NCBI GenBank assembly: GCA_025937785.1
Contig: JAICQQ010000018.1
Coordinates: 3,412-67,411, forward strand
Source: Polyangiaceae bacterium
GTDB lineage: Bacteria > Myxococcota_A > Polyangia > Polyangiales > Polyangiaceae
DNA length: 64,000 nt
Direction: 5' to 3'
Each line of letters begins with the position of its first letter. The first letter of the stretch is position 1. The notes beneath the pieces were generated by a model. The model was given only the letters and a program-made list of their open reading frames with translations. It was not told the origin of the DNA and did no database searches. Below are positions 3,419-53,755 of the stretch, piece after piece. The translations under genes and the position numbers were made by a program.

Positions 3419-5637
<2,219 letters not shown>

Positions 5638-8133: not shown

Positions 8134-8215
8134 TTTCGCGCGCTAGGCAAGTCCGAGCGATGGAAAAGCGCTCCCTGGCCCGGGCGAGCGCGGCGGCCTG
8201 CAAAACGACGTTGCG

Positions 8216-11726: not shown

Positions 11727-11772
11727 CCGGCGCGCTTTGAGCCGGCTGCGAGGACCTGATATAGGAGCCTCG

Positions 11773-21232: not shown

Positions 21233-23326
<2,094 letters not shown>

Positions 23327-33607: not shown

Positions 33608-33637
33608 GAACTCTGTCGCGCGGACCTTCTTGACGGC

Positions 33638-34804: not shown

Positions 34805-36007
34805 ATGAGAATCGTACCTGGAGCCTTGGGCTCAGTGGCCTTTGTTTACGCGACGACGGTCGGCGCAACGGTAGAACCACCGGCCGTTTCGGACGCACGC
34901 AGCGCGGCCCTGGGCAGTACTGGCGTCGCCTACTCCGACAGCGCTGCCGCCGTGTATCACAACCCGGCCGCCCTTTCGGGCGTCGAGCGCGGGCTGGTGA
35001 CGTTGTCCGTGTCACCATTCTTTCCGAAACTCCGCGCCCCGATTGGAGGTACCGAAGAGGACAGCGACCGGGGTTTCTTTCCTATGTTCCTGGCAGGGGG
35101 CGCCTATCGACTGACCGATGAGTTGGTGCTGGGCGTGGCCGCGTACCCGGTGCTGGGCTTTGGCGGCGAATACTCGAATCTCAGCGCCCTGGGGGGTGAA
35201 AGCCTGTCCGTGGCAGCCGCGACCTTCGAAGCGTCACCTGCGGTCTCTTACGCCATCACGGACAGGGTTTCACTCGGGCTCGGTTATCGAGTGACCTACA
35301 TGACTCAGGATGTGCATCAGGTCACCCCCGCGATGGGCCCAGGTGGTGACCCCGTCCTCGTCGCGTCCGACGTGAGCCTCTCCGGTATGAATTTCCTCGG
35401 CGTTCACGCTGGCGTCTTGGCCCACGTTGCCGACGGAACACGCCTGGGGTTGACCTACCGCAACAAGGTGACCATCGACTTGGAAGGAGAGTTCGAGTCT
35501 GCAGGCACCGAGCTCGACGCGAGCTCGGAGTTCGCAGCACCGCACACGTTCAAACTCGGCTTGGCGCAAGAACTCTTGGATGCGCAGCTGATGCTGGCCG
35601 TCGACTTGAAGTACGCGCTGTATGCAGAGTCCAGCGAAACGACATCGACCACCATCGAAGGGATCGGGACCACCGAAACGCCCCTCGATTGGAACAATTC
35701 GCTCGCAGCCGGGCTTGGCGTTGAATACCGATTGGCGAACGACGGGCCTCGGCTTCGACTGGGCTACGGCGCCACGCAAAGCGCCACGTCCGAGGACTAC
35801 CCTCAGCCCTTCCTGGCTCCCCCAGGTTTCATCCATTCCGTGCACGCTGGGGCCGGAGTGCAGCTCTCGGCGTTGGAGCTCGACCTCGGCGGGTTCTACA
35901 TGTGGAGCGGCAGCGAAGTAGAACCTGCCGCGGATTCGGGCGCCGAAGCAGGCGAGTACGCGATCAACGCCTACGTCTTCGCGGTCTCTGCGACCTACCG
36001 CATGTGA
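34805..36007 (+). CDS. FadL/OmpP1/TodX-family outer-membrane channel for hydrophobic compounds
   Basis: GGAGGGA SD. N-terminus ..SAALGSTGVAYSDSAAAVYHNPAAL matches the family signature (G.GGA..A..DA.A...NPAGL). Alternating beta-strand pattern through to the C-terminus. Confidence 0.7.
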   Translation: MRIVPGALGSVAFVYATTVGATVEPPAVSDARSAALGSTGVAYSDSAAAVYHNPAALSGVERGLVTLSVSPFFPKLRAPIGGTEEDSDRGFFPMFLAGGAYRLTDELVLGVAAYPVLGFGGEYSNLSALGGESLSVAAATFEASPAVSYAITDRVSLGLGYRVTYMTQDVHQVTPAMGPGGDPVLVASDVSLSGMNFLGVHAGVLAHVADGTRLGLTYRNKVTIDLEGEFESAGTELDASSEFAAPHTFKLGLAQELLDAQLMLAVDLKYALYAESSETTSTTIEGIGTTETPLDWNNSLAAGLGVEYRLANDGPRLRLGYGATQSATSEDYPQPFLAPPGFIHSVHAGAGVQLSALELDLGGFYMWSGSEVEPAADSGAEAGEYAINAYVFAVSATYRM

Positions 36008-36057: not shown

Positions 36058-37167
36058 GTGAGCCAGCAGCAGATCAAAGGCCAGCGGGTGCGGGTCCTCA
36101 TCGTCGACGATTCAGCCACGGCACGCGTGGCCTTGCGCGGCGCGCTCGGATGCGACCCCAGCATCGAGATCGTGGGCGAAGTCCAGCGCGCCGAGTCGGT
36201 GCTCGCGATGGTCGAGCGGCTGAGACCCGACTTGGTGACGATGGACTTGTATCTGGGTGCTCACAGTGGCGTGGATGTCGCCCGCGAGATCATGCAGACC
36301 CTTCCGACGCCAATCATAATGGTCACGGGGGGCGATCCGAGACACCCAACCCTGGTCTACGATGCGCTCCGAGCCGGAGTGATGGAGGTCGCGGGAAAAC
36401 CTCCGTCGCCTCACCACGCCGACTACGAACACAGCCGCCAAGCCCTCGCGCGCACCGTCAGGACCCTCGCTCGAGTCCCGGTGATTGCCAGACGAAGTGC
36501 ACGGTACCCTGGCGCCCGCGAGTCAACCGACACCTCTGCACCAAAGTGGTCCAGACCGAGCGCGCTGCCAAGCCGGCACCGAGTTCGATCGGACGCGACC
36601 CGGCGTCCCACTCCGCGGCTCATGGTACTCGGCGCCTCGACGGGCGGGCCGCCCGTCCTTTGCCAGATTCTGAGAGGAGTTCCGCGCGGTACTGCCGTGC
36701 CGATCGTCCTGGTGCAACACCTCGCCACGGGGTTCACGGACGGGTTCGCGCGCTGGATGGAGGCTCAGACCGGCTTGAGCGCCGTAGTCGTGCGCGAGCG
36801 TACCCGTCTCGAGGGGGGGCGTATTCACATCGCCGGTGAAGAGCGTCACCTGCAGGTCACCTCGCAAATGTACGTCGAGCCCGACGAAGGCCCCGCCGTG
36901 AACTTTCATCGGCCGGCGATCGACGTACTGTTTCGATCGGCGGCGCGACATTTCGCCGGCGATGTGCTCGCGGTTCTGTGTACGGGCCTCGGCGCCGACG
37001 GGGCCGAGGGCATGCGGGCCCTGTTCGACGCCGGCGCGCGGACGATCGCTCAAAGCTTGGAGAGCTGCGCCGTCGCCAGCATGCCGCGACGCGCCTTGCA
37101 GCTCGGCGCGGTGAAGCGCTGCCTCGCGCCCGAAGAAATCGCCGCCGAGCTCAGGAGCCTTGCCTGA
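36058..37167 (+). CDS. cheB: chemotaxis protein-glutamate methylesterase CheB (REC + methylesterase)
   Basis: REC VRVLIVDDSATARVAL..LVTMDLYLG. Catalytic Ser/His/Asp motifs VLGASTGGPPVL, VLVQHLATGF, TGLGADGAEGM. GTG 36058 avoids overlap with the FadL-like gene. Confidence 0.9.
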   Translation: MSQQQIKGQRVRVLIVDDSATARVALRGALGCDPSIEIVGEVQRAESVLAMVERLRPDLVTMDLYLGAHSGVDVAREIMQTLPTPIIMVTGGDPRHPTLVYDALRAGVMEVAGKPPSPHHADYEHSRQALARTVRTLARVPVIARRSARYPGARESTDTSAPKWSRPSALPSRHRVRSDATRRPTPRLMVLGASTGGPPVLCQILRGVPRGTAVPIVLVQHLATGFTDGFARWMEAQTGLSAVVVRERTRLEGGRIHIAGEERHLQVTSQMYVEPDEGPAVNFHRPAIDVLFRSAARHFAGDVLAVLCTGLGADGAEGMRALFDAGARTIAQSLESCAVASMPRRALQLGAVKRCLAPEEIAAELRSLA

Positions 37168-37206
37168 GCTCGGTTCCGCAGCGCCGCCCTGTGTCCGAAG
37201 ATCTGC

Positions 37207-38184
37207 TCAGCGCTTACCGCGAATGTAGGTCTGCAACGCGTCTGCGGTGTCACGCAGCGAAAGGACGGCCTGCTCTACCTGCCCTGTCGCGGCAGCGGAC
37301 GCTTGGCCTCCCTCCGCCACGTTCATCAAGGCTTCGGAGATCTGTTCGATGCCAGCCGATTGCTGACCAACGGTAGCGGAGATCTGCCGTGCATTGTCCA
37401 CGTTCGTTCCCAGTAGCTGGAGCAGGTCCTTCATTCTCGTGGAGGCCTCGTCCAGGGCGCGCCTGCCCCCCTCGGCACGCCCGACGGCTTTCCAGATGCG
37501 TTGAGCCGACTCGCGACTTTGCTCAGCGAGGCTGCGGATCTCGGAGGCTACGACGGCAAACCCACGGCCGTGCTCGCCCGCCTTGGCCGCCTCGACTCGA
37601 GCGTTGACTGCCAACAGGTTCGATTGGTTTGCGAAGTCGCGAACCGACTCTACGATTTCACCTACTTGACTGATGAGCTCCAAAACCGCACGCGCGTCTT
37701 CGACTGCTTGCATGCCCTGTTCGCCCTTGGTCTGAACGTCCGAGCTCGTGCCCATGACCTCTTGAGCGAAGGCGGCCGCAGCGTTGCTGGTCTCGGTCAA
37801 TTCTCTGATGGTCGCGCTGATCTCGGTGACGGTTGCCGACTGCTGTGCCGCCGTCGCGGCCGTTTCCTTGGCCGTGCCGGACAACTCCACCGTGCTGGCC
37901 AGGATCGCCTCTGCGTGTTTCTCCACGCGGGTCACCACGGTGCGGTACAGCATGAACAGGATGGGTACCGTCACGACAGCGCCCAGGCCGGCTAGACCGA
38001 GCATCGTGCGCAGATCGCCCTCGGCCCCCATGATGAACGTCAAGAGGCAGTTGAAGGCAATCAACGACAGGACGATGCTGAAGAGCCGTGTGGCGAGACC
38101 GCTCCGGAAACGCAGGTACACCCCCCCAACGACGGCTACGAGACAACCAAGCAGGACAACCACGAAGACTGTGTAAGAACCCAT
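37207..38184 (-). CDS. methyl-accepting chemotaxis protein, membrane-embedded minimal type (no periplasmic or HAMP domain evident)
   Basis: AAGGAGA SD before ATG 38184. About 95 aa of closely spaced hydrophobic helices, then a signalling domain with hairpin-tip motif NLLAVNARVEAAKAGEHGRGFAVVASEIRSLAEQS. Confidence 0.9.
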   Translation of the reverse strand: MGSYTVFVVVLLGCLVAVVGGVYLRFRSGLATRLFSIVLSLIAFNCLLTFIMGAEGDLRTMLGLAGLGAVVTVPILFMLYRTVVTRVEKHAEAILASTVELSGTAKETAATAAQQSATVTEISATIRELTETSNAAAAFAQEVMGTSSDVQTKGEQGMQAVEDARAVLELISQVGEIVESVRDFANQSNLLAVNARVEAAKAGEHGRGFAVVASEIRSLAEQSRESAQRIWKAVGRAEGGRRALDEASTRMKDLLQLLGTNVDNARQISATVGQQSAGIEQISEALMNVAEGGQASAAATGQVEQAVLSLRDTADALQTYIRGKR

Positions 38185-38227
38185 ATCAATGTTCTCCTTG
38201 ATGGTCGCCGAGCGACCCGCGGGGCGC

Positions 38228-39724
38228 TCAGCCCGCTCCCCAGAACCGATCGTGCAATGCGACGGTCGCCACACGGTTTCCTTCGAGCACCGAGTCCAGA
38301 AACTGGACGTGCCGTTCGATGCCCGCTCCGCGGACGGTGAATCGCAGTAAACACGCGCGCTCCTCGACGTAGGCCCCGACGGCCTGTTCTAGACGCTGGT
38401 GCGCATGCTCCAGGGCCGTGGCTCGCGGACAGCCTTCCTCCTGGGCGATGCACTCCACCAGGTTGATCTTGCCTTTTCTGGCGTCGCGTTCGGTGGAAAG
38501 AATGTCATTCACCCAGAATATCACGCGAGTGTTCGCCGCCTCGACCCGCTCCAGGGCCTCCCAAGCCTCGGGTCCTTCGATCTCTGCGCCTTCGGTCAAG
38601 CGCCAGAGCTCGATGTAAGGAAAATGGGCGATCAGGTGCTCGCGCTGGACCAGGTACTCGTCGAGCGCCGGAACCCCTCGACCCCGCTGGAGCCACTCTG
38701 CCTCCCATTCGAAGGCATCGAACATGGCCAGCATACGGCGCCGGAATCGATCGAGGGCCACGCCAGGCAGCTCTGCAGCGAGGCGAGTCAGGAAGTTCTG
38801 GGTCGCTCTCGACTCCGGCCGCGGCAAAGGGTCGTTCCCCTGACAAACGCCGCGAACGTCGCGTAGAGTCGATCGCTTGTAGTCGTCAGAAGGAAGATCG
38901 TTGAGGCACAAAAACCAAGCCAGATACTCCGTCGCGAGCTCTATGCCTCGTCGTGTCGGCTTCGGCGCTGAGCAATAACGCGCGTACTCCGCCGCCACCT
39001 GGACATAGCTCCTCCGAGCGAAGCCAGTTTCTTCTACCCAACGCGAAAGGGTACGATTCACGACCTCCATCTCTTCGGTACCCAAAGAGTACAAACGGAA
39101 AGGCAAGGCGCGCACGCCTCTGTCGTCGTCTGTCGTGCTCGGTGAACAGTCAGCGTTATCTCGTTCCTTCATGGCGAACTCCGTATCGTTGGTACTCCAG
39201 CACTCCGCAGCCAGCTTCGAGACTTCGACGAGCGGAAGCGACCCTCCCGGTTCTTGGACGACCGCGACGAGGAATTTCGCAAAGCACACGCCGGCCGCTG
39301 GCTCGTCGACATCCTCGAGGTTCACCGTCAAAACATCGACGACCTCGTCGACTAGGAGGCCCACTCGCCCCCACGCGGTGCCGCAAATCACGATCAGCTC
39401 ACTTGAGGCGATCACATGAGGCTCGCCCTCGAACCGCTGCCGGACGTCGACCACGACAATGCTCGTTCCATGATGGTTCAGTGCGCCGACGACCCACGGC
39501 GCCGACTCCGGAAGCGGCGCGAGCTCGGCTACCGGCACGACCACGTCGACGGATTGGATCGGCAAACCGAACCTCTGCTGCTCCGCGCGGCATACCAGGA
39601 GCGTGATCTTCGTGTCTCCTAGCTGGGTGCGGCCGATCCTAGTCACTAGCTCTCGGCGCAGCCCGACGAGCTCTGCCTGCAAGCTGCCCAGTCGCGCCAG
39701 CAACGCGGCTACTTCTTGCGCCAT
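38228..39724 (-). CDS. CheW domain fused to class-I terpene-synthase-like domain (variant metal-binding motifs)
   Basis: Residues ~38-175: CheW-like (LLVCRAEQQRFGLPIQSVDVVVPV..PWVVGALNHHGTSIVVVDVRQRF..VGLLVDEV). Residues ~205-498 align by eye with bacterial sesquiterpene synthases: LATEYLAWFLCLNDLPSDD vs ..MSWFFLFDDLFD.., DEYLVQREHLIAHFP vs ..YLAMRRHTIG.., VIFWVNDILSTERDARKGKINLV vs ..LLLNDIASLEKEEARGE.N.V. The start overlaps the cheA stop by 16 nt. Confidence 0.75.
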   Translation of the reverse strand: MAQEVAALLARLGSLQAELVGLRRELVTRIGRTQLGDTKITLLVCRAEQQRFGLPIQSVDVVVPVAELAPLPESAPWVVGALNHHGTSIVVVDVRQRFEGEPHVIASSELIVICGTAWGRVGLLVDEVVDVLTVNLEDVDEPAAGVCFAKFLVAVVQEPGGSLPLVEVSKLAAECWSTNDTEFAMKERDNADCSPSTTDDDRGVRALPFRLYSLGTEEMEVVNRTLSRWVEETGFARRSYVQVAAEYARYCSAPKPTRRGIELATEYLAWFLCLNDLPSDDYKRSTLRDVRGVCQGNDPLPRPESRATQNFLTRLAAELPGVALDRFRRRMLAMFDAFEWEAEWLQRGRGVPALDEYLVQREHLIAHFPYIELWRLTEGAEIEGPEAWEALERVEAANTRVIFWVNDILSTERDARKGKINLVECIAQEEGCPRATALEHAHQRLEQAVGAYVEERACLLRFTVRGAGIERHVQFLDSVLEGNRVATVALHDRFWGAG

Positions 39725-41940
39725 CGCTCTCCCCTTCCGTAGAGATGCCGCTCCACCGCGAGCAGCAGCTTGTCATGGTCGAACTGTCCCTTGACCAGGT
39801 ACTCGTCTGCACCCGCCGCCGCCCCCGCCTGAATATCGCTCTCGCGGCCGCGGCTCGTGACGAGCACGATGGGCAGGCCCTTACGCAGGGGGTCCGTGCG
39901 TATGCGGCGCGTCAACTCGAGGCCGTCCATGCCCGGCATTTCGATGTCGCTCAGCAACAGGTCGAACTGCTTTTGCCGTAGCTTGTCCCACGCTTCGACG
40001 CCGTCCACGGCGACCTCGACAGCGTAGCCGGCGGAGGTCAGGATGTTACGCTGCAGCGTTCGCTGGGTGAGCGAATCGTCGACGACGAGAATGCGTAGCG
40101 AGGTCGAAGTAAGTCGGCTGCGCCCGGCCTGACTCGGCGTGGTGGCGGTATTCAGGAACCTCTTGCGCAGCAGAAAGCCGATCTCCAGCGCGATCGCCAG
40201 CGAGCCGTCGTCCAAAACCACCACGCCGTGCATCCCCTGGATGCGCCGAATGTTCCATGGGAGGCGGCGGGTCACGCATTCCTGCTGCTCCAGCACTTCA
40301 TCGACGACCAAGGCCATGCGCTCGCCGGCGCAGTCGAGCACCACCACGTCGAGGTGTCCATGCACGTCCCGGATACGCGGGTCGTCGTCACGCAGTGCCA
40401 ACACAGCGATCGGTTCGGGATCGTTTCCCTCCAGTACGGGAAAGCCGTTGAAGGAGCGCACCTCACTGCGATTCACGCGTAGCGCTCGCTCCACGTAGAT
40501 GGTCGGCAGCATGTAGACCGTGCCATCGACCTTTACCAGCAGGCCCGTTGTCGCCAGTACGCTGACCGGGACCTCGAATCGAAAGCAGGTTCCCATGCCG
40601 CTGCCCGCGGAGCTGAGCGTGCACGTACCTCCGACGGAGGCTAGCTCCTCTCGTACGGCAGCGAGACCAACACCCCGGCCACTGATCGAACTCAGCTCCT
40701 TCGCCGTAGAGAAGCCGTCGAGAAAGAGCAAGTCCAACTTCTCTTGGCTCGTCATGCGCTCGCTTGCTTCTTTGCTCACGATGCCGCGTTCCACCGCTGC
40801 TTTCGCCACCTCGTCGGCGATCGAGCCTTTGCCGTCGTCCCTGATCTCGATAGCGACTCCGCCGCCCGACATGCGGGCGACGATGGACACGGAACCGGCA
40901 TCGGGCTTACCGAGCAAGTGTCGCTCTTGCCAGGGTTCCACGCCATGGTCGACTGCGTTACGTAGCACGTGAACGATTGGGTCGCGGATGTGTTCGAGCA
41001 CGCGCTTGTCCACCGCGGTGTCGCCCACGTCCAGCGTAAGGCGTACCTTCTTGCCCAACGTTTCAGCCGCTTCGCGTACGACCCTGCGCCATTGCGGAGC
41101 GATGGTGGACAGCGCCACCGTGCGAATCTTGTGAATCTCGAGCGTCAGATCGTCGACCACGCGCGCCATGGCGGAGTGCGCTGCGCGCCCGCTGGTCAAG
41201 GCGTGACGCAACATACGCCCAGTAGCTTCGTCGGTGTCGTGACCGCGCGCGACTTCCGTGAGCGATTCGACGTGCTTGCCCCACGCTCCGCGAAGCCTCA
41301 GCAGTTCATCGAGGTGATTGGCGAGCGCGTCCAGGCGCTCGGTGCTTACCCGCAGGTAGTTGTTCGATTGCTCTTGGGGTCCGGGAGCGCTCTCATGGGG
41401 TTCAGCCGCAGGAGACGAAGCATCGGCGCCCGCGAGCGCGGAAGCGTCCGCGGCGGTTCCGCGCTCAGTGCTCGAGGCGCTCCCGCTCTGCCCGCCACCA
41501 TGGTCTCCTACTGGGCCACTGGATCCGTGCATCGACACGGCGGCGTCGCTCTCCTGCGCCACCGACTCGAGTCGTTCTATCAGACGGCTGACCGTCGAAG
41601 CATCGCTCACGCGCGTCTGCTCCGCGAGGCTTTGCATGGCAATCACGGCAGCTTCGAGCACGCGGATCTGCTCTGGATTCGGCAGGGCCGCGCGATGTTG
41701 CAGCAGGGCCAGCACGCTCTCGAAGGCGTGAGCAACCTGGGACAGCTCATTCAAGCCTACTGAGCCGCTCGCGCCTTTCAGATTGTGGGCCAGGCGCATC
41801 GCAGCTCGAATCGTCTCACTCAACCTGGGCCCTTGCGCGCTCGGCAGCTCGGCGATCAAGCTTGCCAGACCATCGAAGAGCTCCCCGACCTCGGAGCGAA
41901 ATGCTTCGATGAGCTCTCGCATCAGGTCGTCGTCTGACAA
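39709..41940 (-). CDS. cheA: hybrid CheA histidine kinase with C-terminal receiver domain
   Basis: HPt (AHNLKGASGSVGL), N-box HVLRNAVDHGVE, G-boxes DDGKG / GRGVGLAAV, CheW-like P5 domain, C-terminal REC (LRILVVDDS..LLLSDIEMPGMDG..LVTS..K). GGAGG precedes TTG 41940. Confidence 0.92.
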   Translation of the reverse strand: MSDDDLMRELIEAFRSEVGELFDGLASLIAELPSAQGPRLSETIRAAMRLAHNLKGASGSVGLNELSQVAHAFESVLALLQHRAALPNPEQIRVLEAAVIAMQSLAEQTRVSDASTVSRLIERLESVAQESDAAVSMHGSSGPVGDHGGGQSGSASSTERGTAADASALAGADASSPAAEPHESAPGPQEQSNNYLRVSTERLDALANHLDELLRLRGAWGKHVESLTEVARGHDTDEATGRMLRHALTSGRAAHSAMARVVDDLTLEIHKIRTVALSTIAPQWRRVVREAAETLGKKVRLTLDVGDTAVDKRVLEHIRDPIVHVLRNAVDHGVEPWQERHLLGKPDAGSVSIVARMSGGGVAIEIRDDGKGSIADEVAKAAVERGIVSKEASERMTSQEKLDLLFLDGFSTAKELSSISGRGVGLAAVREELASVGGTCTLSSAGSGMGTCFRFEVPVSVLATTGLLVKVDGTVYMLPTIYVERALRVNRSEVRSFNGFPVLEGNDPEPIAVLALRDDDPRIRDVHGHLDVVVLDCAGERMALVVDEVLEQQECVTRRLPWNIRRIQGMHGVVVLDDGSLAIALEIGFLLRKRFLNTATTPSQAGRSRLTSTSLRILVVDDSLTQRTLQRNILTSAGYAVEVAVDGVEAWDKLRQKQFDLLLSDIEMPGMDGLELTRRIRTDPLRKGLPIVLVTSRGRESDIQAGAAAGADEYLVKGQFDHDKLLLAVERHLYGRGERWRKK

Positions 41941-42036
41941 TCGACCTCCGCCCTCGCGTCCGGCGTGCCCGCTCCGCGCATTCGATTCACTGCTTCCGTC
42001 ACGCGCCAGGTCTCCGACAGCAGCAGCAACGCGCTG

Positions 42037-42585
42037 CTAAACCTCTGCCCGATCATCCACTATGAGACGTGGATCTTCCAAGAAGCGCTTCGCGTCCAAG
42101 ATGGAAACCAGATCGCTCGAGACGGCTGCGATGGGCCTGCCGGTAGATCCGAGCGTCGCGGCTAGCTCGTGGCTCAACTGATCCTGGCGAAAATCGACGA
42201 ACCCGAGCACCTCGTCCACGAGGACCCCGAGCAAGCCACGAGGTCCCTCCAAGACAGCCAGGGCGCCGGACTCGGCGACGTACGGTGCGTCGAACCAGTG
42301 ACCCAGTTGCGCCACGGAGATCAGCTCTCCACGCACCTGTGCCAGGCCAGCCAACCATCGGGGCGCCTGCGGCACGGGCGTCAGCTTGACGTTGTAAAAC
42401 GCACCCCACAGTGACTCTATCGGAAGTCCGATTCGCTCGGCGCCCAATCGAACCACCACGAATGATAGCACCACCTGGTCCCGATCGAGCGTCAGGGGGC
42501 GAGCGAGTGCCTCGGCGCGACAACGGAGCACCGACGCGTCGCCTTCGGTCAACTTACTCCTTTTCATTCCTGCCAACGGTACCAC
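42037..42585 (-). CDS. cheW: CheW coupling protein
   Basis: 182 aa. FVVVRLGAERIGLPIESL..RWLAGLAQVRGELISV..LGVLVDEVLGFVDF is typical CheW. Confidence 0.85.
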   Translation of the reverse strand: MVPLAGMKRSKLTEGDASVLRCRAEALARPLTLDRDQVVLSFVVVRLGAERIGLPIESLWGAFYNVKLTPVPQAPRWLAGLAQVRGELISVAQLGHWFDAPYVAESGALAVLEGPRGLLGVLVDEVLGFVDFRQDQLSHELAATLGSTGRPIAAVSSDLVSILDAKRFLEDPRLIVDDRAEV

Positions 42586-42658
42586 CTTCGCGCTGCGTGC
42601 GTACGCTCGAATCTCCAGCGCGCCCGAGTCTCACGGAGCAGTCACCGGACTTTGACCA

Positions 42659-43729
42659 CTACTTCGCAATTGCGCCGAGCTGACTTGCGAGCGATGCATT
42701 CACGGAGCATGTACCGAGCGAGGCTGCGCTCGCCAACGCTTGCGCCCCTACCACGGTGCTCAACGCCTCACTGCCGAAGTAGCGCGGTGTTCGGCCATAT
42801 CGAAAGAACGGTGAGATCGCCCACGAGCCGTCCTCGCGGCGTGCGCTCGCGACCACCAAAAGGTCTTCCCCCGCTTGCAGGCCGACGTTGGCACATGCGG
42901 CGACGCGCAGCGCCCGATCGAAGCAGGGCGTATCGGCTCCTTGGCGGTCGAGGAGGCGCTGGCAGAGGGGTTCGAGCAAGGCAGCGCGAGGTCCGGGAAA
43001 GTCACGCGCCAGCCTTGAAACGAAGTACAAGAAGACATCGGGCGAAGGGTAATAGCGTGTCCCGAACAGATACGCGTCGGACTTCAGAAACTCGGTGAGA
43101 CATCGCCACGAAGGCGCCGCTTCTTCGAAGCGCTGAAGTTGACAGAGAAGGTACATGACGTTGGCTAGAACACAGTGGTCGATTCTGCCGCGGTGTTCGG
43201 GGCTCGCTCGATAATACACCTCCAGGATCCCGGCTTCGTTGGTGTTGGTCAGCATGGCGTCTACGCTTTGGCTGACTCTAGTTTCACCGGTGCCGAGTCG
43301 GAGACACAGCGAATGCGCCACCGCGGTGCAATCGAGGTCTGCGTCCAGGAGCGCCCGGTCCTGAAAGAAATGAACGAAGCCTTCTTCGTTGAACGCTCGT
43401 CGCATCAGCTGCAGACAGTTCTCGAGAGTGTCACTCGTGGCACCGGCGTCCATCAGACATTGCGCGATGATCCCCGTCGTAAACACTTCGGGCGGACTGC
43501 GGTACGGTCGAGAGAAGTCTCGATAGTCGGAGAGATAGCTGGGGAATCCAGTCTCCGCGTCGAACTGCCTCTGAATGAATGCCAGCGACTGTTCGAAGTC
43601 TTGCAGGGCGGCGTCATGGCGCGCCGGAACCACCACGCTGTGCTTCGGAGTACCCCGCATTTCCAGCCCCGACATGTAGTACATGATACTCGAGGCGCGC
43701 CTGGCGCGCAGGTCAACAATTCTTGACAT
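42659..43729 (-). CDS. alpha/alpha-toroid (prenyltransferase/squalene-cyclase-repeat, class-II terpene-cyclase-like) protein, tentative
   Basis: LLDADLDCTAVAHSL echoes the class-II cyclase DxDDTA motif. Helix-pair patterns are present (TTGIIAQCLMDAG, CVLANVMYLLCQL, RVAACANVGL), and a repeat-like REDGSWAISPFF lies near the C-terminus. Codons visibly use more A/T at third positions than neighbouring genes. The ORF opens with TTG at 43768; ATG 43729 is the alternative start. Confidence 0.45.
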   Translation of the reverse strand: MSRIVDLRARRASSIMYYMSGLEMRGTPKHSVVVPARHDAALQDFEQSLAFIQRQFDAETGFPSYLSDYRDFSRPYRSPPEVFTTGIIAQCLMDAGATSDTLENCLQLMRRAFNEEGFVHFFQDRALLDADLDCTAVAHSLCLRLGTGETRVSQSVDAMLTNTNEAGILEVYYRASPEHRGRIDHCVLANVMYLLCQLQRFEEAAPSWRCLTEFLKSDAYLFGTRYYPSPDVFLYFVSRLARDFPGPRAALLEPLCQRLLDRQGADTPCFDRALRVAACANVGLQAGEDLLVVASARREDGSWAISPFFRYGRTPRYFGSEALSTVVGAQALASAASLGTCSVNASLASQLGAIAK

Positions 43730-43776
43730 CGCGTGTGCTAGGGCAAGCGTCGTTAGGACTGTCAGCAATGTAGCGG

Positions 43777-43799
43777 CGGTATCCGTTAACGGTATCCGT
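43777..43799. promoter_or_regulatory. candidate operator: direct repeat CGGTATCCGT-TAA-CGGTATCCGT containing the palindrome CCGTTAACGG, in the divergent Che promoter region
   Basis: Two perfect 10-bp repeats with a 3-bp spacer, read directly. They lie between the minus-strand Che operon start (43768/43729) and cheY (43966). Confidence 0.35.
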
Positions 43800-43965
43800 C
43801 ACTCTCGTGCAGCCCGGCAGGCGAAGCTCCAAAAGTCGAACTGGCGCGCGCCAGCGCATGGCGACTCGCTCGCGCGCGCATGAGGTTGGCACCCTAGAGC
43901 CTGCAGAACCAACTTCGTCGCTCTTCACGAAGGCGAAGGGGTGGCCGTTAACCGAGCCAGTAGCC

Positions 43966-44328
43966 ATGGCTCAGGTACTCGTAATCGACGACGATCCGCT
44001 GTTTGCTGCGCTGGTGAAGATTCGACTCACCGCGGCGGGGCACGAAGTCATGTACAACGAGGGCCCCTTCGGTGCGCTCACGGCAGCGCGACACGGAGCC
44101 TACGAGTTGATACTGATCGACGTTCAGATGCCAGGCATAGAGGGCCCTCAGCTCGTCGATTGCTTTCGAAGCAGGGGGAACCCCGGCTTGAGAATCGTCC
44201 TCATGAGCAGCTTACCCGAGCAACAAGTGATTGGGCTGGCGGCGAAGTCTGGCGCGGATGCTGCGTTCTGCAAGACCACCGGTCTCGAGAAGCTCGCGGG
44301 CATCGTCCAGTCGGTTCTCGACAATTGA
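43966..44328 (+). CDS. cheY: single-domain CheY-like response regulator
   Basis: MAQVLVIDDDP...LILIDVQMPGIEG...VLMSS...K. 120 aa. Divergent from the Che operon. Confidence 0.85.
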   Translation: MAQVLVIDDDPLFAALVKIRLTAAGHEVMYNEGPFGALTAARHGAYELILIDVQMPGIEGPQLVDCFRSRGNPGLRIVLMSSLPEQQVIGLAAKSGADAAFCKTTGLEKLAGIVQSVLDN

Positions 44329-44377
44329 GCTCTACGACGCACCTACCATCCTCGGTCAGGGTCCAACGAGACGTGCG

Positions 44378-45655
44378 ATGACTCTATCCACGATGTTGCA
44401 GAGCGCCATCACCAAGCGATTCGGACTGAGACCGAGACACGACTGGGCCAAGAGCATCGAGCAGGCCATCTCGCAGCTGGCGGACGAACGGCAGCTACCG
44501 CGTGCTCGAGTCGAACGTGACCTCCCCGACGATCCAAACCTGCTGCGCGCGGTCGCCGGCAAGCTCACCGTGGAGGAGACGTTCTTCTTCCGCTTTCCGG
44601 TACAGATCGAGCAGGTGGTCGACCACGTGGCTCAGCTCTTGCCCCATCGCCCCCGCGCAGCCGTCACGGTGTGGTCAGCAGGCTGCGCTTCTGGAGAAGA
44701 GCCGTATAGCGTGGCCATGGGGCTTCACGGGCGGCTGGGCGCATTGCCGGACAACCTAGCGATTGTCGGCTGCGACATCAGCGCGGTCGCCATCGAACGC
44801 GCGCGTCGTGGAATCTTCGGGAACTGGTCGTTCCGCGGGGTTTCCGAGCAGATTCGACAGCTCTACTTCGAAAGCTTGCCTGCCGACAAATCCCGCATCG
44901 CGGCGGTTTTTCGTAGCTCGGTGCGCTTCGAGCACCTCGCAATTCACGAGATGGCGCACAGGCTCGGACCGACCAGCGTCGATGTGGTGTTGTTCAGGAA
45001 CGTGGGTGTCTACTTCGATGAGGCTAGCCTCGCGCGCTGCTTCAAGCAGTATCATCGGGCGCTTGCCCCGGACGGTCTGTTGGTGTTGGCCGCCACCGAT
45101 CCGACGCCGCCACCGGAGTTGTTCAAGCGTGTGCGCTCGGATAGCATCGGAATTTATCGTCGCGCCGAGCAGTCCGAAGTCACGAAGTCCCGTACGAAGG
45201 CGCGCACGGTTCCGAGGCCAGCGCCCGATCCGGTCGGGAGGCGTGACGCTATCAGGACATTGCGACCACCACCGGTCGTCGAAGCCTTGGCGCTCGGTGA
45301 TCGCGGCCAGCTCAGCCAGGCGATCGAGGCGGCCGATCGGGCCGTAGCCGGGCACGTCGACGACCCTCACGGTTTCTTCGTGCGCGGGCAGCTGCTGCTG
45401 GCTAGCGGACAGCCGGTCGCGGCCATCGAAGACTTCAGGCGGGTCTTGTTTCTGCGAGCTGATGACAGGCTCGCTAGGTATTGGTACATCGTCGCTCTCC
45501 ATGGGGCACGCGAGGTGGGGCGCCTGGGACCCCAAATAGCCGAACTGCGCCGCCAGCTCGCCGGCGCTCTCGAGGACGAGATCTTGGAGGACGGACGCAC
45601 CTCGGCGAGCGAGTTACGCGCGGCTCTGATCACCTTCGAAGGGCTTTGCGAATAG
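44378..45655 (+). CDS. cheR: chemotaxis protein methyltransferase CheR with C-terminal TPR-like extension
   Basis: CheR N-domain, SAM site VTVWSAGCASGEEPYSVAM, VVLFRNVGVYF. The C-terminal ~130 aa are helical-repeat-like. Confidence 0.9.
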   Translation: MTLSTMLQSAITKRFGLRPRHDWAKSIEQAISQLADERQLPRARVERDLPDDPNLLRAVAGKLTVEETFFFRFPVQIEQVVDHVAQLLPHRPRAAVTVWSAGCASGEEPYSVAMGLHGRLGALPDNLAIVGCDISAVAIERARRGIFGNWSFRGVSEQIRQLYFESLPADKSRIAAVFRSSVRFEHLAIHEMAHRLGPTSVDVVLFRNVGVYFDEASLARCFKQYHRALAPDGLLVLAATDPTPPPELFKRVRSDSIGIYRRAEQSEVTKSRTKARTVPRPAPDPVGRRDAIRTLRPPPVVEALALGDRGQLSQAIEAADRAVAGHVDDPHGFFVRGQLLLASGQPVAAIEDFRRVLFLRADDRLARYWYIVALHGAREVGRLGPQIAELRRQLAGALEDEILEDGRTSASELRAALITFEGLCE

Positions 45656-47429: not shown

Positions 47430-50400
47430 GTGTTCGACGACGACTTCGCCTTCCTAACCTCTCGCGGGGACACGATTCGCGTGCGCGTTGTCGGCGGGAG
47501 CACGGCAGCGTCCACGCGCGAGGACCGCGCCCGCGCCCGTGAAGCACTCCGAGAGCTGCGTCTCGGCATCTTGTGGAACTTCGGACCCGTACTGAGAGCG
47601 ATCGAACAACTGCATCGAGCGCTTCGCGGCAGGAGCACCGACTTTTCGTCGCTTCAACTGGATGCTGGTCTAGCGCGCGAAGCAACGTACTCGCAGCTCT
47701 TGAACGACATCGAGGAAGAGTTCGAGCTGGGCCGGCTCGTGGTCAGCGAGGGCGCGTTTCCGTTGCTGGAGGTTCCACCAGAGTTCGAGCTCGGCGTCCG
47801 GGAGCGCGCTCTGGACATCGAAGTCCCGCCGCCGCTGGCGCGGCGCGCGGAAGCCAACGAAAACCTGACTCTCTTCGACGTGCGCTTCGTGGACGAGGTC
47901 GGACAGCCCATTAGCGGCGTAGCCGTCGAGATAGAGGCCGGCGATCGCCTGGAAAAGTTGACGACCAACGGTGCCGGGGTGGCGCTGCTCGAAGATGTCA
48001 CGTCCATGTCGGCTTCGGTGCGTCTCGTCGACGTTGCAGCGCTCGAGGCCATCCTGGACCCGCGCTGGGAAACTGAGCGAAGCGGTTCGGCACCGAGCGG
48101 CGCCAACACCACTTCCGTGGTCTTCACCGGTGCCGGGCTTGGCGCCGTGTCCCTGAAACCAGCGGTGCCGAACACGGTGGTGATCCAGCCACCGCTAGGC
48201 AAGCTGTTCGTCGAGCTGTGGGACAAGAATGGCCGCGTCCTCCACGTTGGCCAGGACTACGAGATATCCGGTCCCGCCAGTCTTTCTGGAACCACCGACG
48301 AGCAAGGGCGATTGCTTCACGAAGAACTCTTGCCCGGCGACTACGAGCTCGCACTCTCGATCAAGCTCGACCCGGGCGACGGCAGCGAGGTCGTCGACAC
48401 GGAGACGGCCAAGCTGGTGGTGTTGGCACCCGCCGCCGCGGCTCCCCAGATACGCATGCTCGGGGTCGTGCCCCACGTCGAGATGGTTCGATTGCGCGGG
48501 ATGCTGTTCGACACCAACAAGTCTTTCTTGTTGCCGAGCGCCATCGAGCCGTTTCGGACGGTACGCGACTTCTACCGGCAGAGTAATCCGAGTGACCTCT
48601 TGATCGTCGGCCACACGAATGCCACTGGCGAACCTGACATCAACGATCCTTTGTCCGAAGAGCGCGCCGAGAGCGCACGCGCCTACTTGATGGACGACGT
48701 GGACGCGTGGCTCGGCAATTACGATCTCTCCGGTAGCAAACGCTGGGGTTCCCGCGAAGACGGCCTCATGCTCCGGTCGCTGCCCGACTTCGGCACGAAG
48801 GGCGAGGCTGAAGACAGCGTCACCTGGTTCCAAAGAACGCGCAGTCTCGGGGTCGACGGCGTGGCCGGGCCCGAGACTCGTCGCCAGCTCATCACCGAGT
48901 ACATGGCGCTCGACGGGAGCCCGTTCAGCGAAGAGCCCGATCTGGTCGTTCTCGTGCAGATCCACGGCGCCGGCGAAAACTTCCCGCTGAAGGACACGGG
49001 CTTCGAGCTCGACACCCAGGCCGCAGGGTCACATCCAGACGCGTTCGATCGGCGAGTCGAGTTCTTCTTCTTCGAACCCGAGTTCGGCATCTTGCCGGCA
49101 CCCGCTGCCCCCAACGGCAAAGAGTACCTCAATTGGCGTGAGCGCTCGGACCTGGATCTCGACCTGATCGCAGGTCAGGTGGCACCGACGGAGGCTACGG
49201 TGATCGAGGTGGAAGACGTCTTCTTCCGGACGGACAGCGCCGTGGTTCACCACAGCCTGAAGTGCGCGAGCGCTTTCGCGCTGGCGCTGATCTTCGCCGA
49301 TACGAAGCGGGATCACCGGCTCTTGATCGCCGGTCACACCGATACCCGTGCGCCAGATTCGTTCAACCAACCGCTCTCCGAAGAGCGCGCGGAAAACTCG
49401 CTGGCCGTGCTGGAGGGCAACCGCGCCCGCTTCGTCGAACTCAGCGAGGCGCGCAACAAGGTCGGCGATCACAAGCAGATCTTGCGGTTCTTGACGGAGC
49501 AGCTGGCCTTCGACTGCGACCCGAGTCAAATCGACGACAACGCCTTCACGGCGGTGGCTGCGGTCAAGCAGTTCCAGGAGCAGTACAACGCGAGGAGGGC
49601 CGCGCTCGGCGTCCCCGATGCGACCGAGATCGGCGTGGACGGCAGTGTCGGTCCAGAAACCTGGGGTGCTTTCTTCGACTGTTACGAGGCATTTCTTGCC
49701 GGGCAAGTCTCGTCGGCGAGCGATGTGCCGGGGCAACTGGAAGATCTGAAGGAGCTGCGCACGAGTCTCGCTTTCGTCGATGACGAGAAAAAGACCCTGG
49801 GGTTCGGCGAGCGCTTCCCTGAAGAGCGTCCGGGCGTCGACAACGTTGCGAGTGCTACGAATCGCAGGGTCGAGCTGTTGTTCTTCCCTGTAGACGACGT
49901 CCCGAACCTGGAGGGCTCACTCGACGACTCGGAGATCTACCTGCCGGGGCGCTTCAAAAAGCAACAGATCGACCCCTGCGAGGAGCCGCCGCCACCGCCA
50001 CCCCCACCGCCGCCGCCGGTCGGGGCCACGAAGGGAAAAATCTTCGTGCGCGTCGTGCAGGCCGACGGGAGCCGCGTTACCGACGTGGCAGTCTTCTTGT
50101 TCGATCGCCGGGTCGGGCGCTCGCAGATCGACTTCTCCGAGACGTCGACGGGTGAGGTCGATTTCGGAGAGCGTGATCCCGGCACCTACGAGGTCGACGT
50201 CTCGAAGGACGGCTTCCAGGGAAACTCTCAGGTCTTCGACGTCGTGGCGGGAGAAACCAGTGTCGTTACGGTGTTGGTCACGCGCATCGGACAGTCAGAA
50301 GAGGGACGCATCGTGACCGAAAACGTGACGACGGTGTTCAGGACGGTCGCGCGACAGGACGTCTCGCCGTTCGTGGGGCCGTTCTTCGTCGTGGGCCCCC

Positions 50401-50687
50401 CTTCGGTCGCGGGCGAATTCAGAAACCCCTCGGACTTTGGCCCCGTTCGCGACGCGCAGGCCAAACTCGAGCACGAGGCCGCGGTCGCAAACAGAATTGC
50501 CGAGCTGAAGGCCCAGAACGGCGACAACCTGATCCGGACGGAGCAGGTCCCTTTGAAGCCGGTCCTGCTCCAAGACTTCACGGTGGAGGACGAGAGAACC
50601 TCTCAAGAGCGGGTCGTGCGCGCCACCATCATCTTCACCGATAGCGTGACGAGCCGAACCGTTCTGATCAACACGTTAGCCAAATGA
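47430..50687 (+). CDS. large multidomain protein: two OmpA/MotB-like modules each interrupted by a PG_binding_1-like insert, poly-Pro linker, carboxypeptidase-regulatory-like beta-sandwich domains
   Basis: OmpA-like: MLFDTNKSFLLPSA..LLIVGHTNATGEPDINDPLSEERAESARAYL..FDRRVEFFFF, and FFRTDSAVV..LLIAGHTDTRAPDSFNQPLSEERAEN..NRRVELLFF. Inserts: SLGVDGVAGPETRRQL and EIGVDGSVGPETWGAF. 11 x Pro run. GKIFVRVVQADGS..DPGTYEVDVSKDGF. No N-terminal signal peptide visible. Confidence 0.75.
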   Translation: MFDDDFAFLTSRGDTIRVRVVGGSTAASTREDRARAREALRELRLGILWNFGPVLRAIEQLHRALRGRSTDFSSLQLDAGLAREATYSQLLNDIEEEFELGRLVVSEGAFPLLEVPPEFELGVRERALDIEVPPPLARRAEANENLTLFDVRFVDEVGQPISGVAVEIEAGDRLEKLTTNGAGVALLEDVTSMSASVRLVDVAALEAILDPRWETERSGSAPSGANTTSVVFTGAGLGAVSLKPAVPNTVVIQPPLGKLFVELWDKNGRVLHVGQDYEISGPASLSGTTDEQGRLLHEELLPGDYELALSIKLDPGDGSEVVDTETAKLVVLAPAAAAPQIRMLGVVPHVEMVRLRGMLFDTNKSFLLPSAIEPFRTVRDFYRQSNPSDLLIVGHTNATGEPDINDPLSEERAESARAYLMDDVDAWLGNYDLSGSKRWGSREDGLMLRSLPDFGTKGEAEDSVTWFQRTRSLGVDGVAGPETRRQLITEYMALDGSPFSEEPDLVVLVQIHGAGENFPLKDTGFELDTQAAGSHPDAFDRRVEFFFFEPEFGILPAPAAPNGKEYLNWRERSDLDLDLIAGQVAPTEATVIEVEDVFFRTDSAVVHHSLKCASAFALALIFADTKRDHRLLIAGHTDTRAPDSFNQPLSEERAENSLAVLEGNRARFVELSEARNKVGDHKQILRFLTEQLAFDCDPSQIDDNAFTAVAAVKQFQEQYNARRAALGVPDATEIGVDGSVGPETWGAFFDCYEAFLAGQVSSASDVPGQLEDLKELRTSLAFVDDEKKTLGFGERFPEERPGVDNVASATNRRVELLFFPVDDVPNLEGSLDDSEIYLPGRFKKQQIDPCEEPPPPPPPPPPPVGATKGKIFVRVVQADGSRVTDVAVFLFDRRVGRSQIDFSETSTGEVDFGERDPGTYEVDVSKDGFQGNSQVFDVVAGETSVVTVLVTRIGQSEEGRIVTENVTTVFRTVARQDVSPFVGPFFVVGPPSVAGEFRNPSDFGPVRDAQAKLEHEAAVANRIAELKAQNGDNLIRTEQVPLKPVLLQDFTVEDERTSQERVVRATIIFTDSVTSRTVLINTLAK

Positions 50688-51841
50688 CGGACGCTCCCTC
50701 AATTCGCAATCGCGGGGCCATTGCGGTATCGCTGCTCGCTGTCGTGCTGGCGGGGCTGTTGGACGTGACGGGACCAGGGGTTTTCATCCGCGACGCCGCG
50801 CTGCTACAGCACTACGCGTCCCTGCGCGCCACGCTGAGCACCATGGATCAGCTCGGTCTCGTGCTCGCGAGCGTCTTGACCAGCATGTTCTCGGTGCGTC
50901 CGCTCGCAGCGCTCTTCGGTGGCTGTTACGTGGCGCTGATGGCTCTTGGGGTGGTGGCCGGTTCACTGGCGTCGTGGATGCTCTCGGGGCTGGCCGCGGT
51001 CGGCGCCGCGCTCGGGCTCTGCGCGTGGGTGCAACTGATCCGGCACGCGCTCCTGCTGCCGCGCCAGCTTCGTCACGCAGTCGCCGTGCTAGCGCTGGCC
51101 GCTTCCAGTTTGATGACCGTCGGTACAGCGGGGCTCTTGACGCCGCTGCTCCTCGCGGGCCCCCCTGGGCTCGCCCTCGTCGTGAGTGGGGCCTCGGCGT
51201 TCGTCGTGGTACTCTCGCTCGCGTCTCTCCGTGCCCCAGAGCATCGATCGGTGCCCGCCGAGCATTCCTGGCTGCAGCCGGCGCTCGGTCTATTGGCGGT
51301 GAGCGTGGTGGTGTCGATCGCCGTGCTGGTGTTGACGGATAGCTTCGTCGACCCCCATGAGCTGCCGGCCGATAGGCCCTGGATCCAGGCGCTCGGCGCC
51401 GTCTTGGCGGAGCTTTTCCTGCTCGGTTCGTGCCTCTGGGTATTGCGACGGAAGCCAGAGACTCCCAGTCTGCGCTTGATGGCGCTGATCCTGGCCACCA
51501 GCGCGGTGCTCGCGCCTGCGGGTGCGCTGGTGTTGAACGCTCGTTGGGGTACAGCTCCGGGGTTGGTCGCCGCATTCGCCGGTGGCCTCGCGTCCGTCTG
51601 CGTCACGCTGCTCATGGTCGTGGCCGCGGCACGCGCGCCCGAGCGCTTCGTCGGAGCAGTAGTCGGCGCCTGGTTCGTGTCGGGAACCTTGACCTTCCGA
51701 ATCTCGAGCAGCCTGGTCGACGACGCCAGAACAAGCGGCGTGTTTACTGCCGGCGTGGCGCTGGTGGTGCCCTGCTTGTTCGGGGCGTGTGCTTGGGTCC
51801 TCATGAGGTTCAGCCGTTCTGCGAACGAAAGCGGTGGGTGA
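50684..51841 (+). CDS. polytopic membrane protein, hypothetical
   Basis: ATGA overlap with the upstream gene. About 10-11 hydrophobic helices. No recognisable motif. Confidence 0.65.
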   Translation: MTDAPSIRNRGAIAVSLLAVVLAGLLDVTGPGVFIRDAALLQHYASLRATLSTMDQLGLVLASVLTSMFSVRPLAALFGGCYVALMALGVVAGSLASWMLSGLAAVGAALGLCAWVQLIRHALLLPRQLRHAVAVLALAASSLMTVGTAGLLTPLLLAGPPGLALVVSGASAFVVVLSLASLRAPEHRSVPAEHSWLQPALGLLAVSVVVSIAVLVLTDSFVDPHELPADRPWIQALGAVLAELFLLGSCLWVLRRKPETPSLRLMALILATSAVLAPAGALVLNARWGTAPGLVAAFAGGLASVCVTLLMVVAAARAPERFVGAVVGAWFVSGTLTFRISSSLVDDARTSGVFTAGVALVVPCLFGACAWVLMRFSRSANESGG

Positions 51842-51844
51842 AGC

Positions 51845-53752: not shown

Positions 53753-53755
53753 ATC

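Follow-up and report, generated by a model that had tools for sequence, protein, structure and literature searches.

The stretch of DNA analysed here (hereafter the window, 64,000 nt of contig JAICQQ010000018.1 from the Polyangiaceae bacterium assembly GCA_025937785.1; positions are counted from its first letter) carries, within a set of chemosensory genes, a gene that probably encodes a single-domain class II terpene cyclase. This gene, the target of the analysis, is the first of five on the same strand, which encode in order the beta-domain cyclase, a CheW protein, a CheA-REC hybrid kinase, a CheW protein fused to a class I-type terpene synthase (alpha) domain, and a methyl-accepting chemotaxis protein (MCP), with gaps of 73, 96, -16 and 43 nt between them (Table 1). 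Upstream of the target lies a divergent promoter region of 280 nt, with genes for a CheY-like protein and a CheR-TPR protein on its other side, and genes for CheB and a FadL/TodX-type channel are found just past the MCP gene on the opposite strand. A preliminary description of this DNA, made from its letters alone, had placed the open reading frame (ORF) at the head of a Che operon, and the ORF together with the Pfam calls of its CheW and CheA neighbours confirms this position. Operon structure was judged solely from the short intergenic gaps; promoter and terminator scans of 36900-44400 gave matches at chance level only and were uninformative in this respect.

Read from a TTG start at 43768, the target ORF is 369 aa long, and the database gene call (P0001) is 341 aa long, starting at M29 (nt 43684). 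Comparison with the DNA of two close relatives leaves the ATG at M32 (nt 43675) as the sole conserved start, and more distant homologues also begin at this position (MSG.../MAG...). The protein is therefore likely to be 338-341 aa long, probably starting at the ATG at 43675 (M32) or 43684 (M29).

Scans of Pfam-A and NCBIfam gave no match for the target, the Pfam release used being older than PF28380 (AstC-like_C), which is a precomputed annotation on its homologues. As a single sequence searched with phmmer against the PDB, the protein matches AsDMS, a drimenol synthase of bacteria, over its cyclase domain (E = 9e-32), and a fungal enzyme, AstC (E = 6e-15); a profile of 30 homologues matches the whole beta domain of AsDMS (chain residues 234-523, E = 3.4e-68) as well as AstC (E = 1e-40). 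The AlphaFold2 model, built on a homologue alignment, is an alpha/alpha barrel of 12 helices (predicted local distance difference test (pLDDT) 90.6, predicted TM-score 0.87). Its ten best Foldseek matches are all AsDMS chains (9m7d_B: E = 1.5e-18, TM-score 0.80, root-mean-square deviation (rmsd) 2.1 Å), followed by the monodomain class II cyclases 8pak/8paj, 6ij1 and MstE, then by the more remote SsDMS (E = 1e-7) and squalene-hopene cyclase (SHC; E = 1e-5); toroids of glycoside hydrolases come far lower, at E about 1e-4. The single alpha/alpha toroid of about 360 aa proposed in the preliminary description is thus recovered as a one-domain barrel, all of its best structural matches are class II terpene cyclases, and its homologues are isoprenoid enzymes rather than members of some unrelated toroid family.

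Similarity over the full domain, the 12-helix fold, a DxD with its accompanying Tyr and an Arg/Tyr cluster all place the protein in PF28380. It does not belong to the HAD-TCbeta class, being a single domain with no HAD match and with DLDCT rather than DxDTT, nor to the beta-gamma class of SHC and class II diterpene cyclases, as it has one domain, DxDC, a single QW-like motif and no Pfam or NCBIfam match. The C-terminal REDGSW repeat noticed earlier is this QW-like motif, present in one copy at 42821-42838 (family consensus QRxDGSW). A search with the family profile returned 2082 clusters at 50% identity (E <= 1e-3), 393 of them at E <= 1e-30.

Structures and mutagenesis of AsDMS have identified D333 as the proton donor and D331 and Y427 as essential (PMC12365925; also PMC9128629, PMC12232559). 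In that enzyme Y427 is hydrogen-bonded to the general acid, a Mg-independent diphosphate site is formed by Y373, R378, R380, R425, Y426, R513 and S514, with R425 and Y426 binding the diphosphate, and F281, F318, Y319, F509 and F518 form the aromatic lining; activity is abolished by mutation of D331, D333, Y427, Y373, Y426 or Y319 and nearly abolished by mutation of R378 (PMC12365925). Each of the proton donor, diphosphate-site and aromatic residues has an identical or conservative counterpart in the aligned target, the conservative changes being Y319 to F and S514 to T. D144, D146 and Y240 (numbering of the 369-aa ORF) align with D331, D333 and Y427, the motif residues D144, D146, C147 and T148 corresponding to D116, D118, C119 and T120 of the 341-aa call. 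The counterparts of Y373, R378/R380, R425/Y426 and R513 are all present, as the first Y of EVYY, the Arg pair of HRGRID, the RY of GTRYYP and the R of YGRT, and the aromatic counterparts are the F of PPEVF, the FF of HFFQD and two F within the FFRYGRTPRYFGS region (F509 and F518 of AsDMS). Over 173 family members the active-site positions are 85-99% conserved, with lower values for the equivalents of R378 (13 R and 12 K) and R380 (72 R and 32 K) and an intermediate one for R513 (R or K in 126); the F509 equivalent is F or Y in 166.

The sequence DADLDCTA is encoded at 43322-43345, exactly where the preliminary description had put it, but the interpretation given there, that Cys replaces the central Asp of the class II motif, has to be revised: the Cys is at the last, variable position of DxDD, and the middle Asp (D146) is intact. 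At this fourth position SHC and diterpene cyclases have D, AstC and AsDMS have T, and a mono-beta enzyme from Sorangium has V; the Cys is presumably not the proton donor, and the catalytic Asp is kept. Because D, D, C and T are invariant in the 30 homologues, the motif is no chance match. Over the 173 members, the first Asp of the motif is D in 169 and the middle one D in 161 and E in 8; the fourth position is mostly C (120), then T (30), D (10) and S (8), and the Thr after it is T in 148. All stand-alone or alpha-linked copies with a readable motif among the fetched loci have DxDC, and the HAD-fused Bacteroidota enzymes (L022, L024, L025) have DxDTT. Judging from these alignments, DxDCT is the majority state of the family and no peculiarity of the target gene. 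An invariant Cys beside the general acid could make the cyclase redox- or thiol-sensitive. A zinc site using this Cys was also considered and rejected, there being no conserved His in the 30-homologue alignment.

The alpha domain encoded three genes downstream (38228-39124) matches Terpene_syn_C_2 (Pfam E = 4e-25) and is modelled with pLDDT 80-95, with Foldseek TM-scores of about 0.8 (target-normalised) to bacterial class I synthases. An NSE-type motif, NDILSTERD (38483-38509), is kept, as are the upstream Arg sensor (R..H) and a C-terminal R-F/Y pair. Word-indexed searches for proteins like the CheW::terpene synthase fusion, or like its alpha domain alone, gave only 4 proteins each; the alpha family was studied from fetched loci with tblastn and a custom hidden Markov model (HMM). 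The canonical DDxxD is missing (ND, NE, or a bare DD followed by a deletion) from the beta-linked alphas examined (window, L001, L003, L006, L008, L013-L015, L017, L020, L031, L033, L038, L043, L046, L049 and L050), which retain NDxxSxxx(D/E), the Arg sensor and the C-terminal R-Y/F pair. The sole exception is L005, where a synthase with a canonical DDxxD sits 1.5 kb from the beta gene. The beta-linked alphas look like a distinct subfamily of Terpene_syn_C_2, perhaps specialised for cyclic diphosphates.

Association between the two types of domain extends well beyond the window. A profile search located an alpha gene at roughly 30 of 43 genome loci, either within about 2 kb of the beta gene or sharing a Che cluster with it. 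Beta and alpha lie side by side, or overlap, in Streptomyces (L008 and many others), Haliangium, Mycobacteriales and a metagenomic contig (L006), and they form single beta-alpha proteins in an acidobacterium (L017) and a UBP8 genome (L020). An exhaustive HMM search yielded further beta-alpha fusions (P0040, P0048, P0054, P0057, P0059, P0061, P0076), fusions in the alpha-beta order (P0094, P0114, P0132, P0148, P0159), and also HAD-beta, beta-histidine-phosphatase and methyltransferase-beta proteins. With alpha standing beside beta, or fused to it in both orders, across several phyla, the class II/class I terpenoid pair suggested in the preliminary description is strongly supported by gene arrangement. 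The repeated fusion to a diphosphate-ionising fold or to a phosphatase points to a beta product that is a diphosphate and needs a second step.

The acidobacterial fusion (L017, 9854-11839, 661 aa) lies amid ORFs (5883-12705) that resemble, by eye, mevalonate-pathway kinases and a decarboxylase, and it is adjoined by a terpene synthase with a canonical DDxxD (7688-8707). Among the fusion proteins, P0174 carries His_Phos_1, P0152 an S-adenosylmethionine methyltransferase and P0157 a HAD domain with DxDCT retained, and P0059 is a 1029-aa protein with about 350 unassigned N-terminal residues ahead of the beta-alpha unit. In Pirellulales-type contigs (L007, 10001-12272; L018, 2401-4500), a DxDCT beta gene is followed by a UbiA-family prenyltransferase gene, with no alpha; UbiA standing in place of alpha suggests a meroterpenoid branch of the family. 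DxDCT beta genes, mostly adjacent to an alpha gene, occur at many Streptomyces loci (L008, L028, L032-L035, L038, L041-L051). According to a 2024 paper, the rearranged drimanes of S. olindensis require a type II cyclase that is still unidentified (PMC12453296); that the DxDCT family could be its source is speculation.

The identical 498-aa CheW::alpha protein is encoded on 3 contigs from separate assemblies. In its closest relative, L055/L056 (80% identity), the second CheW gene (CheW2) and the alpha gene are separate, in different frames, with a 17-nt overlap. When the fusion junction (window 39150-39200) is compared with L055 (7430-7610), a deletion of a single G (GGG to GG), some 10 nt before the ATG of alpha, is seen to join the frames. 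An internal ATG (M185, 39170-39172) preceded by GGAG is retained in the fusion, so the alpha domain might also be made alone. The comparison indicates that the CheW::alpha fusion is real but recent, and that what is ancient and conserved is the close coupling of CheW2 and alpha in translation. An AlphaFold2 model of the fusion showed neither a confident CheW domain nor a confident CheW-alpha interface, because the alignment on which it was built held no CheW homologues.

Nine genes make up the conserved set: those for FadL, the beta cyclase, CheB, CheR-TPR, CheW, CheA-REC, a second CheW, alpha and MCP. The full set is found, in two gene orders, in 7 lineages (window, L055/L056, L001/L010, L003/L004/L011, L013, L014 and L015); in L016 it is present with the alpha gene moved, which gives at least 8 Polyangia-type genomes altogether, and partial copies occur on short contigs (L002, L009, L052-L054). 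The Che-linked set spans Myxococcales/Polyangiaceae down to about 40% identity with the window protein, and FadL is present in every Che-linked cluster whose contig reaches far enough. The CheY-like regulator occurs only in the gene order of the window, not in the second order. Overlapping frames are seen at the beta/CheW junction in L001, the FadL/beta junction in L003 and the CheW2/alpha junction in L055. A neighbour-joining tree groups the Che-linked beta genes in a single clade, divided into two subclades that follow the two gene orders; the sister group of this clade consists of beta-alpha pairs without Che genes. As the gene set has been kept through rearrangement, we argue that its members share a function.

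The cyclase gene belongs to a Che cluster of the alternative cellular functions (ACF) type, being conserved and co-oriented within a set comprising CheA-REC, two CheW, CheB, CheR-TPR and MCP; fusions of CheR to TPR are typical of ACF-type pathways (PMC3447774). The MCP has three N-terminal transmembrane (TM) helices and essentially no periplasmic loop or domain, and so seems suited to sensing inside the membrane or from the cytoplasm. The loop between its first two helices is conserved in 8 orthologues as RF(R/G)(D/S/N)G(L/I)(A/G)T(K/R)L (RFRSGLATRL here). The MCP signalling domain is nearly identical among otherwise diverged clusters. FadL/TodX proteins pass hydrophobic molecules across the outer membrane. 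In the divergent promoter region, the tandem pair of 13-mers (43778-43803) and the near-palindrome listed in Table 1 are conserved in L054 and L055, the third 13-mer copy lying outside the aligned stretch; these elements look like candidate operator sites for some regulator.

Table 1. Features of the predicted terpene cyclase gene and of the chemosensory cluster around it (window positions)
Feature	Position	Strand	Evidence or remark
Predicted beta-domain terpene cyclase gene	42659..43768	-	ORF; PDB sequence matches, PF28380, AlphaFold2 and Foldseek
DLDCT, predicted general-acid motif	43325..43339	-	Coordinates; alignment to AsDMS; conservation
EVYY...HRGRID	43178..43222	-	First Y = AsDMS Y373; two Arg = R378, R380
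GTRYYP	43046..43063	-	R, Y, Y align with AsDMS R425, Y426, Y427; invariant among family members
QW-like motif REDGSW, then FFRYGRTPRYFGS	42770..42838	-	Alignment to AsDMS
CheW 1	42037..42585	-	Pfam CheW, E 7e-18
CheA-REC hybrid histidine kinase (Hpt, HATPase_c, CheW-like, Response_reg)	39709..41940	-	Pfam
CheW 2 fused to class I-type terpene synthase alpha domain (residues ~203-498)	38228..39724	-	Pfam CheW and Terpene_syn_C_2
MCP, 325 aa	37207..38184	-	Pfam MCPsignal; 8-orthologue alignment
CheB (REC and methylesterase), 369 aa	36058..37167	+	Pfam, gene call
FadL/TodX-family outer-membrane channel	34805..36007	+	Pfam Toluene_X, synteny
Divergent single-domain CheY-like response regulator	43966..44328	+	Pfam, synteny
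CheR-TPR methyltransferase, start probably near 44375	44231..45655	+	Pfam
Three 13-mer copies, GGTATCCGTTAAC-like, with palindrome CCGTTAACGG	43778-43790, 43791-43803, 43940-43952		Divergent promoter
Near-palindrome TCAAGAATTGTTGA	43713-43726		Divergent promoter region

The G+C content at third codon positions (GC3) of the target is 0.695, against 0.752 for the other 8 genes of the Che cluster (z = -2.4) and 0.814 for 18 other Pfam-supported genes (z = -5.6). Among the codons listed as frequent in the preliminary description, TAT (58% of Tyr codons versus 13-22% in other genes), TGT (64% of Cys codons versus about 25%), CAA (47% of Gln codons versus about 29%) and CGA (31% of Arg codons versus 10-17%) are indeed enriched, but usage of TTT is ordinary. 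Its contrast with GC3-saturated neighbours was overstated: the immediate neighbours have GC3 values of 0.71-0.78, and the whole Che cluster lies below the rest of the window. The hint at a foreign origin drawn from codon usage receives no specific support from this modest bias, which is common to the entire cluster, and we rejected it, orthologous clusters being present in related Polyangia. Because the lower GC3 is not confined to the target, it is no evidence for a recent foreign origin of this gene; the bias fits either low expression or an older acquisition of the cluster.

Beside the FadL gene, at 32477-34057, are genes for a histidine kinase with an RsbU_N-like N-terminus and an RsbW-like HATPase_c_2 protein, which are not adjacent to the cluster in L001 and are therefore probably unrelated to it. 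Kunitz/BPTI domains are uncommon in bacteria, and an ORF at 61247-62281 encodes such a protease-inhibitor domain (E = 8e-19). Very large ORFs (1085, 385, 635 and 635 aa) occupy 47430-55663; OmpA-family, CarboxypepD_reg and peptidoglycan-binding domains are present in two of them, two match nothing in Pfam, and a poly-proline stretch occurs in one. Alpha-glucan genes (for a GlgE C-terminal domain, an isoamylase-like protein and GlgB) and a gene for a membrane H+-pyrophosphatase, at 188-5637 and 21233-23326, are ordinary housekeeping genes that would fit a myxobacterial chromosome.

In architecture as well as in taxonomy, the nearest known relative is the Sorangium cellulosum Soce836 enzyme (WP_129572421), a stand-alone beta domain of about 330 aa, also from Polyangiaceae and homologous to the AsDMS C-domain; it shares the D-x-D and the YY pair, and its Arg/Tyr set is similar. 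It converts farnesyl diphosphate (FPP) to a cyclic sesquiterpenyl diphosphate without Mg2+, the alcohol being released only after phosphatase treatment, and the authors found no working second-step partner (bioRxiv 10.1101/2025.09.20.677545). Unlike the target, it has DxDVT and was described as an isolated gene, with no alpha or Che context reported; its product was not identified in the preprint. AsDMS (PDB 9mhs, 9m7d-f) and AstC (PDB 22ty) belong to the same PF28380 beta family, with conserved catalytic, diphosphate and aromatic residues, but have an N-terminal HAD phosphatase and DxDTT, whereas the target has DxDCT and no HAD domain, its second step apparently being delegated to the class I-type alpha domain rather than to a phosphatase. 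MstE and the other monodomain class II cyclases (PDB 6sbb-6sbg, 8pak, 8paj, 6ij1) share the single barrel and the general-acid Asp, at 13-18% identity to the target and with rmsd of 4.4-5.4 Å, and the substrate of MstE is a prenylated aromatic acid instead of a prenyl diphosphate. Bifunctional class II/class I synthases (alpha-beta-gamma diterpene enzymes of plants and bacteria, such as abietadiene synthase; PMC11469919) offer the analogous sequence of protonation cyclase, cyclic diphosphate and completion by an alpha domain; they differ in their beta-gamma interface and DxDD, the target lacking a gamma domain, its alpha partner having a degenerate DDxxD, and beta and alpha being separate genes here or didomain proteins in relatives.

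With regard to signalling, ACF-type systems with accessory genes include Wsp of Pseudomonas and Che7 of M. xanthus, the latter with Des7/Cpc7. The window cluster is like these in combining CheA-REC, two CheW, CheB, CheR-TPR and one MCP with embedded non-chemotaxis genes, but its accessory genes are a split terpene synthase and a FadL channel. In our literature searches, no paper connected terpene synthases with Che clusters, and none was found on the DxDCT branch as such, on its pairing or fusion with a DDxxD-less alpha, or on conservation of such a pair with a FadL channel inside a chemosensory cluster.

From the conserved residues and the AsDMS structures, a mechanism may be proposed for the target as a cyclase of prenyl diphosphate. 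An all-trans prenyl diphosphate, most likely FPP, would bind at the centre of the barrel, its diphosphate held without Mg2+ by the Tyr/Arg cluster (first Y of EVYY, Arg pair of HRGRID, R and first Y of GTRYY, R of YGR). D146, hydrogen-bonded to the second Tyr of GTRYY, would then protonate the terminal double bond, and the aromatic residues (F of PPEVF, FF of HFFQD, two F near the C-terminus) would steer the cation to a bicyclic, drimenyl-type diphosphate; the Cys at the variable fourth position would play no part as proton donor. The cyclic diphosphate would be handed to the class I-type partner three genes downstream, which would strip the diphosphate and complete the terpenoid.

Taken together, the joint explanation that accounts best for these observations, and one we consider likely, is that the target is a single-domain class II terpene cyclase with a DxDCT acid motif, working with an alpha partner and set in a Che cluster. 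What the pair does for the cluster is a more tentative matter. On the most economical reading, the lipophilic terpenoid made by the pair may be the cue for the membrane-embedded MCP, synthase and receptor forming one cassette, with FadL as the route through the outer membrane. That a terpenoid acts as a signal is, on its own, a tentative proposal, and the complete circuit, in which a self-made signal, produced at the array or beside it and passed through FadL, is sensed (or the FPP flux behind it) by the three-helix MCP and relayed to CheA, is possible but doubtful. The opposite direction of coupling, with the Che pathway governing terpenoid production and alpha docked to the array through CheW2 so that the class I step is gated, appears unlikely. 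It would explain the constant position of the alpha gene between those of CheW2 and MCP, overlapping CheW2 by 17 nt in L055 and fused to it in the window, and the lack of a dedicated output response regulator in the second gene order; CheR-TPR also marks non-motility outputs (PMC3447774). Neither enzyme, however, has a REC or other regulatory domain, the fusion stems from a very recent 1-nt deletion that left the internal start in place, and the AlphaFold2 model gave no usable CheW-alpha interface. We know, moreover, of no precedent for allosteric control of an enzyme through CheW. With no regulatory domain on either enzyme, and a fusion that arose recently by accident, we prefer the synthase-plus-receptor cassette over synthesis controlled by the array.

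Other readings give the proteins different roles. The location of both genes inside the Che operon, an alpha domain without DDxxD and a Cys next to the general acid that is unusual with respect to characterised enzymes would all suit a model in which beta, alpha or both are non-catalytic, cytoplasmic isoprenoid sensors feeding CheW/CheA. This is improbable given that the D/D/Y triad and diphosphate ligands are kept alike in Che-linked and other copies, that the same N-for-D alpha motif is found in beta-alpha fusions outside Che clusters (one of them in a mevalonate-type cluster), and that DxDCT is the family majority, Streptomyces pairs without Che genes included. A mere neighbourhood of terpenoid and che genes, with no common function, is likewise hard to credit: although the operon was drawn from short gaps with promoter and terminator scans at chance level, and in other phyla the ancestral beta-alpha pair works with no Che genes at hand, the full set survives rearrangement into two orders down to about 40% protein identity, and overlapping frames tie beta to CheW (L001), FadL to beta (L003) and CheW2 to alpha (L055). 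The structural likeness to MstE and to 8pak/8paj, small entries labelled 'squalene-hopene cyclase', and the pairing of some family members with a UbiA prenyltransferase instead of an alpha synthase, could point to a prenylated acceptor (a meroterpenoid precursor, as with MstE) or squalene in place of a simple prenyl diphosphate. Conservation of the AsDMS Arg/Tyr diphosphate cluster, a partner of the diphosphate-ionising type, the phosphatases fused to other members and the use of FPP by the Sorangium homologue make such a substrate very improbable. As for an unrelated toroid (a glycoside hydrolase, a LanC-like protein, or a protein like a prenyltransferase beta subunit with the Cys as zinc ligand), protein prenyltransferases do use a D-x-C zinc site, and there are weak Foldseek matches to GH88/GH105 and RabGGTase beta (E = 2e-4 to 9e-4). 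These are about 14 orders of magnitude weaker than the matches to terpene cyclases, no conserved His would complete the zinc site, and the Pfam scan gave no GH, LanC or Prenyltrans match. Given the phmmer, profile and best Foldseek matches to terpene cyclases, this last reading is effectively refuted and we regard it as extremely unlikely.

Several points weigh against a working terpenoid pair wired to the Che pathway. On the enzymatic side, the first metal motif of the alpha partner, NDLPSDD (38882-38902), is degenerate: NDLPSD aligns with DDQCDE of T-muurolol synthase, D1 being N and D5 being S, so that there is no DDxxD, and loss of this motif normally cripples class I ionisation. In the cyclase, A511 of AsDMS is replaced by Tyr, and the product need not, therefore, be drimenyl diphosphate; catalysis by DxDCT members would follow by analogy with characterised enzymes. 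No prenyl diphosphate synthase was found among the Pfam-scanned ORFs of the window. On the signalling side, the fusion being a recent 1-nt deletion in one lineage, it provides no evidence for an ancient physical link between CheW and alpha, and it is gene linkage that suggests a terpenoid as input or output of the pathway. The Che-linked examples all come from uncultured metagenome-assembled genomes or metagenome contigs, and the neighbour-joining tree carries no support values.

As an enzyme, the target falls in a family that is already defined in Pfam and has one characterised stand-alone relative, but it represents a large and essentially uncharacterised branch of class II cyclases with a single beta domain and a DxDCT motif. 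Some bacterial type II sesquiterpenoids still have no known cyclase, and this branch offers candidate genes for them. The cluster itself shows a secondary-metabolite synthase conserved as part of a set of chemosensory genes, alongside a channel that takes hydrophobic molecules through the outer membrane, and it makes testable the idea that myxobacteria may use a self-made terpenoid as a chemosensory cue.

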